A stretch of DNA of 64,000 nt from Eledone cirrhosa (Eukaryota): the NCBI GenBank assembly GCA_964016885.1, contig OZ024748.1, positions 8,370,001 through 8,434,000 on the forward strand, read 5' to 3'. Position numbers and translations under genes: made by a program. The notes under the pieces were generated by a model that saw only the letters and a program-made list of their open reading frames with translations, ran no database searches and was not told the origin of the DNA. Positions 5,118-52,770 of the stretch are shown here, piece after piece. Numbering within the stretch: position 1 is the stretch's first letter; every line of letters starts with the position of its first letter.

Positions 5118-5120
<3 letters not shown>

Positions 5121-5291
5121 AACGAGTAGGACCCGACGGCTGAGCTCAAGCCGTTTCGACGGCTAATTCGTCGAAACGGCTTGAGCTCAGCCGTCGGGGT
5201 CCTACTCGTTCCTATTACCCACTCTACTACCCTAAGAATTGAGTACTTTGGTGCGTTATGGTCCACCTGGTTCCTTACCACATTTCCTTCG

Positions 5292-5293
<2 letters not shown>
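5118..5293 (+). mobile_element. TA-embedded fold-back element, family P1 (Penelope-like pLTR remnant with 3' half of a hammerhead)
   Basis: Inverted arms 5118-5161 and 5169-5213 (one indel), then an unpaired 3' extension to 5293. Contains GAAACGGCTTGAGCTCAGCCGTC (GAAA, stem III, GUC). (TA)n on both sides. Confidence 0.8.
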
Positions 5294-43692: not shown

Positions 43693-43727
43693 TCGGCTTG
43701 AGCTCTGCCGTCAGGGTCATACTTTTT

Positions 43728-43731
<4 letters not shown>
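43693..43731 (+). mobile_element. Family P1 short fragment ending in (TA)n
   Basis: CGGCTTGAGCTCTGCCGTCAGGGTCATACTTTTTCCTATA matches the P1 right arm. Confidence 0.75.
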
Positions 43732-43772
<41 letters not shown>

Positions 43773-49679: not shown

Positions 49680-49869
49680 AGACGATCGACTTTCGTCAAA
49701 TCGGATCGAGGGAACAATGTTTCCGTTGGTCTTTCCAATTGCTAATACTATCTATCGGTCGCAACTCCAGGTAGAAGGAGCAACGTGAAATAAAGTGTCT
49801 TGCTCAAGGACATAACGCATCGCCTGGTCCAGGAATCGAGGCGATGCGTTATGTCCTTGAGCAAGACAC

Positions 49870-49876
<7 letters not shown>
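49678..49876 (-). mobile_element. TA-embedded CORE-type SINE fragment with 5' fold-back inversion
   Basis: Perfect 38-bp arms at 49788-49825 and 49839-49876 around a 13-nt loop containing the B-box complement CAGGAATCG. (TA)n on both sides. Confidence 0.8.
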
Positions 49877-50126: not shown

Positions 50127-50236
50127 GGAACCAGTAAGACCCCGACAGCTGAGCTCAAGCCGTTTCGACGGCTAATTCTGGACTCAGAATTAGCCGTCGA
50201 AACGGCTTGAGCTCAGCTGTCGGGGTCTTACTGGTT

Positions 50237-50239
<3 letters not shown>
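50126..50239. mobile_element. TA-embedded fold-back element, family P1
   Basis: Perfect 55-bp arms at 50126-50180 and 50185-50239, loop GACT. Confidence 0.9.
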
Positions 50240-52510: not shown

Positions 52511-52770
52511 AACGAAGGAAATGTGGTAAGGAACCAGATGGACCAAAACGCACCAAAGTACTCAATACTTAGGGTAGTAGAGTGGGTAATAGGAACAAGT
52601 ATCACCCCGACGGCAGAGCTCAAGCCGTTTCGACTCAGAATTAGCCGTCGAAACGGCTTGAGCTCTGCCGTCGGGGTGATACTTGTTCCTATTACCCACT
52701 CTACTACCCTAAGTATTGAGTACTTTGGTGCGTTTTGGTCCATCTGGTTCCTTACCACATTTCCTTCGTT
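52511..52770. mobile_element. TA-embedded fold-back element, family P1, 260 bp
   Basis: Perfect 124-bp arms at 52511-52634 and 52647-52770 with a 12-nt loop TCAGAATTAGCC. Confidence 0.92.

Follow-up and report, generated by a model that had tools for sequence, protein, structure and literature searches.

Short palindromes in the Eledone cirrhosa genome as probable head-to-head cDNA products of a Penelope-like element

Short palindromes of the P1 family, three of which lie in the window analyzed here (64,000 nucleotides of Eledone cirrhosa contig OZ024748.1, positions 8,370,001 to 8,434,000, assembly GCA_964016885.1), are the front ends of a Hydra-clade Penelope-like element (PLE), probably made as two separately primed cDNAs that both run off its RNA at the 5′ end and then become fused head to head. 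According to this model, transcription would start at the A located 18 nt before the GAAA of a hammerhead ribozyme, A(-18), inside ribozyme stem II, and the front of the RNA would therefore bear only the 3′ half of the ribozyme. The endonuclease would cleave both strands of a (TA)n target, and each target end would pair through its TA and prime at one of two internal positions, which lie 58 and 138 nt from the cap. Synthesis of the 58- and 138-nt cDNAs would run off on reaching the cap, frequently with the addition of a C, and host end-joining would fuse the two cDNA 3′ ends using 0 to 2 nt of microhomology, accompanied by trimming or filler.

The original prediction, made from the window alone, had placed three palindromes here and described their centers and arm identities, all of which were confirmed. 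All three copies are embedded in (TA)n. Copy A (5119 to 5292) is a typical palindrome with a short left arm, a long right arm, and the center GCTAATT (5162 to 5168); its left arm is one G short relative to the right arm. Copy B (50127 to 50238) has two short arms of 54 nt each, an exact match, around the center GACT. Its minus-strand arm begins at an A (50184), the putative transcription start, which is preceded by a single non-native G (50185). Copy C (52512 to 52769) is a long/long palindrome whose 123-nt arms (52512 to 52634 and 52647 to 52769) match exactly on either side of a 12-nt center. On the plus strand of copy C, the hammerhead 3′ half (52650 to 52672) comprises the GAAA (52650 to 52653), stem III, and the predicted GUC cleavage triplet (52670 to 52672). 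It is followed by the stem I 3′ strand with a bulge (52673 to 52689), ending in TTCC, and by an 80-nt PLE tail (52690 to 52769), ending in CCTTCGT. The native next bases are TA at both termini, and the short 3′ end at 52689 and the long 3′ end at 52769 are the candidate reverse transcriptase (RT) start sites 1 and 2, respectively. Copies B (short/short) and C (long/long) are atypical in their tail pairing. The window further contains a solo, 5′-truncated short arm of the P1 family followed by (TA)n (43694 to 43732, plus strand), an older, diverged solo arm (55871 to 55923, plus strand), and a short, diverged fragment (57475 to 57502, minus strand), the last two each from a related subfamily. 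Two inverted structures of other origin were also seen: a near-perfect palindrome of an unrelated repeat adjoining copy B (49790 to 49875) and a 342-nt inverted repeat, 94% complementary and unrelated to P1 (59657 to 59998 and 60343 to 60684).

Genome-wide, the 19-nt P1 core had 62,608 exact matches in the 3.0-Gb assembly, compared to 0 for the reversed control; the P1 palindromes are therefore not a chance occurrence. By center length, 11,523 palindromes had centers of 0 to 30 nt, 5,814 had centers of 31 to 60 nt, and 506 had centers of 61 to 90 nt, in agreement with the claim that breakpoints cluster near the GAAA and are not uniformly distributed. These counts come from exact patterns and are lower bounds, so the genome contains at least 17,000 P1 palindromes. 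The exact-match patterns, together with the use of samples from the start of contig C1, favor young copies.

The parent of these palindromes was identified at locus L161, where an inverted 578-nt copy, a 5′-truncated copy, and a full 3,118-bp unit display the PLE architecture of a partial tandem of the pseudo-LTR (pLTR), an inverted 5′-truncated copy, and an optional tail. The full unit encodes an intact 719-amino-acid ORF with RT and GIY-YIG domains, for which 2,054 homologs were found among 8,000 scored sequences; a Pfam search with this ORF returned 0 families. A model built from an alignment of 96 rows reached a pLDDT of 92.5 (the single-sequence fold reached 32), and its best fold match was the telomerase TERT. 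The YRDD and VIY..YIG motifs are conserved in 94 to 96 of the 96 aligned rows, and the ORF further carries RWR37, DKT117, C572xCx5C, C670xxC, and C698xH, also conserved in homologs, with no GxK[FY]. The parent is thus an endonuclease-bearing (EN+) PLE with a single ORF, a telomerase-like RT, and a GIY-YIG domain at the C terminus. Copies end 3′ at either of two sites 80 nt apart (TTCC and CCTTCGT), with TA as the next bases of the parent at both, and copies of the parent family are inserted in (TA)n. These motifs and (TA)n insertion define the Hydra clade of C-terminal EN+ PLEs in the available part of the description (PMC8557442), and the parent fits this definition by motifs and target. Many diverged Hydra-like ORFs were detected by tblastn in neighboring loci.

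In a set of 64 palindromes, 57 combined a long with a short tail, one was long/long, none was short/short, and six were unclassified. At L161, where the arms are far longer, a long tail is again paired with a short one, so that the mini-palindromes would rank as the shortest examples of the inverted-pLTR structure already known. Measured with strict column sets, the further-reaching arm was the long one in 24 cases and the short one in 18 (18/42 of those decided), with 15 ties. The extra C described below was borne by the long arm in 12 cases, the short arm in 12, and other arms in 3 (n = 27).

The two arms of a palindrome are more alike than arms drawn from different copies, diverging by 1.8 per 31 nt within copies versus 4.7 between copies, and they belong to the same subfamily in 33/40 palindromes versus an expected fraction of 0.21. 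Two freely sampled RNAs are thereby excluded, and one RNA or source locus serves both arms usually, with mixed pairs occasionally. The original proposal that each palindrome forms at insertion is upheld in this sense, the template being mostly that of one subfamily. Its further claim of variants private to each copy holds for copy C, whose GATAC is rare (3/322 arms, two of them its own); copies A and B, by contrast, carry the common subfamily words CCTAC (55 of 322 arms) and CTTAC (124 of 322). Since both arms of copy C share this rare variant, arm-to-arm copying is suggested there, and the long/long copy C may have been perfected in this way after its formation. P1 arms are also joined head to head to an unrelated family, X (see below), at three loci (L031, L049, and L057). 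At L099:1500 and L197:1500, one AGCCG arm and one ACCCG arm occur on opposite tail types, which suggests two templates per insertion; segmental duplication as the source of this resemblance was rejected because the flanks are unrelated.

These observations bear on the alternative that a single run-off cDNA folds back onto its 3′ terminus, at the RNA 5′ end and not in the ribozyme helix, and copies itself, with internal TA resolution setting the short end and trimming blurring the center. Such a course would account for the usual match in subfamily between arms, for the B junction, in which a GACT loop can be read as closed by a C:G pair, and for the rare variant in both arms of copy C. It requires, however, that the long arm be made first and reach furthest, and the cases in which the short-tail arm reaches further oblige the copying of a first arm to be followed by trimming. 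The short-tail arm also bears the extra C in 12/27. Rare variants, moreover, were shared by both arms 3 times and confined to one arm 41 times among the 52/64 palindromes kept, the latter count being also inflated by later mutation. The cross-family junctions and the 29/49 centers with 0 to 2 unpaired nucleotides also weigh against self-copying, which we regard as quite unlikely.

The second regularity is the point at which the arms stop. For 99 of the first 100 core matches on contig C1, the arm ends were placed: 58 had 5′ ends at -12 to -22 relative to the GAAA, 2 at -27 to -44, and 18 past -45. The ends pile up at A(-18), within the initiator-like sequence T(T/C)AGT. In the first 100 of 5,247 matches, read by eye, the -18 base was followed by a non-native C in 86 and by a non-native T in 14; where both arms end at -18 (434 palindromes, the first 50 also read by eye), 45 were C/C, 5 were C/T, and none was T/T. 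Position -19 in the long copies is T or C only (33/33). An extra, non-native C at the arm stop is as would be expected for a cap, and A(-18) is accordingly the candidate start site and capped base. Other origins are available for about a third of the single extra Cs and for 19 C/C cases: approximately 16/86 single Cs read C-CAGAA, for which the partner arm is a possible source; approximately 13/86 read C-AGTCC and could be supplied by the TTCAGT subfamily; and 19/45 C/C cases share one 3-nt filler, which a single C together with templated synthesis could yield. Nor is the 5′ end sharp to a single base, since many arms terminate at -19 to -21 with A-runs and the ends are spread over -17 to -21. 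In the public run X1, summed contig depth immediately downstream of the stop site exceeded that immediately upstream of it approximately 20-fold, a ratio derived from contigs of unstated kind, which does not represent copy number and possibly comes from the same sample. The arm-end pile-up and the extra C together suggest a promoter and transcription start inside the pLTR. The Penelope promoter has been located in its pLTR, an Inr-like motif has been reported in rotifer pLTRs, and for L1, a terminal G in genomic copies has been taken as cap evidence, as far as the accessible portions of these reports go (PMC2377424, PMC3846280, and PMC2831318, respectively). A splice acceptor (TTTAG) was considered as the cause of the stop and rejected because the AG is included in the arms and no common upstream exon or leader is present. 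A TATA-like TATTTAA (L161:3520-3528) lies 29 nt before the putative start; it is part of stem II and is not conserved in all subfamilies.

Two further palindrome families in the window permit a comparison. Family Y (54045 to 54212, approximate ends) is unrelated in sequence to P1 and comprises 1,463 palindromes genome-wide with long/short tails; besides the window, it was seen at L029, L031, L040, L041, L043, L138, L150, and L241. Its arms stop at TTAGTT, and of 37 arm ends read by eye, 17 had C next, 12 had the native A, 5 had T, and 3 had G. A hammerhead-like core (U4A) starts 5 nt past the stop by hand reading, which the minimum free energy (MFE) fold did not reproduce. Family X (54245 to 54725, approximate ends) comprises 145 palindromes, found also at L276 to L280, that are centered on GAATCATATGATTC and have long/short tails; they turn at a self-complementary ATAT that shows no evident initiator, and a canonical minimal hammerhead lies approximately 130 nt downstream of this turn. 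Parent ORFs of families X and Y were not found adjoining them at the loci examined, and their ribozyme-like fold, tails, and TA target suggest that both may be PLEs. Because the two families turn at other positions relative to the ribozyme, the turn does not track a helix; it follows an initiator-like motif in two of the three families (P1 and Y).

It could be supposed instead that the two joined cDNAs owe their common 5′ end to an RNA break, a processing site, or pausing of the RT in the A/U-rich stem II loop rather than to a transcription start. The spread of ends over several positions, with A-runs, and the turn of family X at a site without an initiator-like motif would both be in keeping with this, and the terminal transferase activity of an RT is able by itself to add a C. 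Against it stand the two unrelated families that stop at TTAGT with the same extra C at different fold positions, as well as the natural variation of the site between TTAGT and TCAGT, both initiator-like. We consider a break or pause unlikely, and run-off at a capped 5′ end the preferred reading.

Centers were compared in 49 of the first 50 palindromes listed on contig C1. There were 34 distinct centers among the 49, of which 29 had 0 to 2 unpaired nucleotides. Contrary to the original claim, the junctions are not distinct for every copy: the B-type junction occurred in 4/49 and the A-type in 1/49, and the center of copy C (52635 to 52646), compared with copy B by direct reading, equals the B-type junction with 14 nt removed from between two GAC repeats. 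This loss would be a secondary deletion or a template slip; the T preceding CAGAATT in the same center is non-native. The B-type junction is present on at least four subfamily backgrounds. In listings of centers of 31 to 90 nt, unrelated DNA or A-runs sometimes separate a pair of arms each ending at -18 or -19. Some centers on contig C1 (e.g., L213) repeat the arm end several times or contain long stretches of A/T, a pattern similar to that of templated insertions or reiterative synthesis.

The fixed outer ends at TA, the recurrence of some junctions, and the large number of cores could also be explained by a MITE-like, palindromic, nonautonomous element remobilized as a unit, its arms homogenized by gene conversion. 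The diversity of centers, the several backgrounds of the B junction, and the prevalence of unequal arms all argue against such a unit, as does the identity of the outer ends with the two 3′ ends of the parent retroelement; we judge it very improbable. A constant interior between equal terminal inverted repeats, as expected of a MITE, was thus not what we found, given 34 centers in 49 copies and unequal arms in 57/64. Target-site duplications are unreadable inside (TA)n.

The P1 arm holds the 3′ half of a hammerhead (GAAA, stem III, and GUC, the predicted cleavage site), as the original prediction had recognized, and this hammerhead is of type I; the missing core, however, is UUGAN(A/G)A, approximately 50 nt upstream, and not CUGANGA. 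Long copies carry ACCCC-UUGAN(A/G)A-G at this distance from the GAAA. In 33 long copies, the core read TTGAAAA in 10, TTGAAGA in 8, TTGAGAA in 6, TTGATAA in 6, CTGAGAA in 2, and TTGACAA in 1, with all four letters at N7 and CTGANGA in none, contrary to the expectation that longer copies would carry it. A search for native CTGANGA upstream of GAAA gave 47 matches, and all 30 inspected were junction by-products or chimeras. U3-A8 cores occur in PLE hammerheads, according to the accessible part of a previous survey (PMC4209133). The MFE fold of a natural copy (L161:3488-3612) is a type I three-way junction with an energy z of -0.42, which is not exceptional; the junction includes the core, the GAAA, the NUH, the G10.1-C11.1 pair, and the 3-8 pair, the last paired in 30/32 rows. 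Stem covariation in 32 close copies, with 0 two-sided changes, was not above shuffles. The window holds half copies only, and no hammerhead was present among the best 150 of 296 Rfam rows for it; those rows are microsatellite and hairpin noise. At the loci examined, there was neither an arm-end pile-up at the predicted GUC cut nor a head-to-tail junction of cap and cut. Canonical CTGANGA..GAAA motifs resembling minimal hammerheads occur in other families in the window (9479, 25904, 57913, 59600, 60115, and 5433). An alternative hairpin, AGCCGT-CGAA-ACGGCT, masks the GAAA if the ribozyme 5′ half is absent (L161:3558-3573; window 52643 to 52658).

The original prediction attributed the palindromes to a cDNA that snaps back at hammerhead stem II and primes its own second strand, which would fit the position of the breakpoints in the stem II region and the center of copy C, which resembles a GAC/GTC hairpin. 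The native stem II 5′ strand, however, is G(A/C/T)TCGGCTA and not GAC. It was absent from all 107 palindromes examined and present in 1/50 of a listing of palindromes with longer centers. The arms stop approximately 30 nt short of this strand, so the stem II helix cannot form in the cDNA. The order of the arms is also wrong for self-priming, since the short arm reaches further in 18/42, and 29/49 centers have 0 to 2 unpaired nucleotides. Snap-back at stem II is thus largely refuted, and we assign it only a minimal likelihood. What survives of the proposed self-priming hotspot is the hotspot itself: the turn-around site is real, while families X and Y turn at other positions of the ribozyme. 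The ribozyme fold probably does not set the breakpoint but overlaps the putative promoter, and with a start inside stem II, most P1 copies would hold half a ribozyme.

A broader reading, which we offer tentatively as possible rather than likely, is that PLEs use a strong-stop step like that of retroviruses, in which RT proceeds from near the RNA front to the cap and normally jumps to the RNA 3′ end by way of a 41-nt terminal redundancy, building the pLTR and the partial tandem. The redundancy would span the transcription start to the hammerhead cut. The mini-palindromes would then be the fossils of jumps that failed, tens of thousands in number and one per strand of the double cut, and a promoter within the ribozyme would keep the RNA front uncut and the back cuttable. 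Retroviral minus-strand strong-stop DNA is likewise a short cDNA ending at the cap; the P1 proposal shares this cap-ended product and dispenses with a tRNA primer and RNase H.

The parent resembles the Hydra-clade PLEs, as far as the available text describes them (PMC8557442), in its single ORF with RW(K/R), DKT, CxCX5C, GIY-YIG, CxxC, and CxH and no GxKF/Y, and in its (TA)n target, hammerhead, partial tandem with an inverted 5′-truncated copy, and optional tail. It differs in its 3.1-kb unit, in its tail of 80 nt versus 30 to 40 nt, and in its U3-A8 or U3-G8 core and stem II of approximately 55 nt, versus the canonical CUGANGA in four Hydra entries; the same text describes no counterpart to the tens of thousands of mini-palindromes bounded by a transcription start site. 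The origin of inverted pLTRs and one-sided tails in PLEs is described there as unresolved. For the Poseidon element PAc, the accessible sections report that both target strands are cut and extended in vitro and that two internal RT start sites bound the tail (PMC11167929). The AT-rich target and the two tail-bounding sites are shared with P1, and the PAc hammerhead is dispensable for insertion; PAc, unlike the P1 parent, belongs to another clade and primes without TA homology, and those sections report no head-to-head product, cap run-off, or one-long-one-short rule. The P1 palindromes may thus tie this two-strand, two-site chemistry to genomic architecture. PLE hammerheads in the accessible survey text (PMC4209133) are likewise type I and located in the pLTR, with ribozyme pairs on opposite strands 100 to 700 bp apart and a U3-A8 core from Schistosoma; P1 has a monomer-like stem III of 5 to 6 bp, a long stem II, and a putative transcription start inside it. 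Nothing bearing on P1 palindromes was present in the available parts of PMC12910113 and PMC6962438. Published work already covers inverted pLTRs, tails, targeting of (TA)n, and U3-A8 hammerheads. In the accessible literature, no earlier description was found of the run-off boundary with its extra C, of the one-long-one-short rule, or of a transcription start within the ribozyme.

Head-to-head joining of run-off cDNAs would likely explain the inverted ends of Penelope-like elements. The P1 family offers more than 17,000 natural products that follow single-base rules: two 3′ start sites used once each, a shared 5′ stop bearing a cap-like C, and joins across families. This suggests that genome sequence by itself suffices to locate where PLE transcription begins and that, in such genomes, many sequences that look like MITEs or hairpins are by-products of retrotransposition. 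In L1 twin priming, both target strands also prime and the inverted parts do not overlap, whereas in P1, both primers would copy the same 5′ segment and yield a true palindrome. MITEs and foldback elements are likewise short, high-copy, palindromic, and located at TA; the P1 palindromes differ from them in their variable centers, unequal arms, and retroelement parent.
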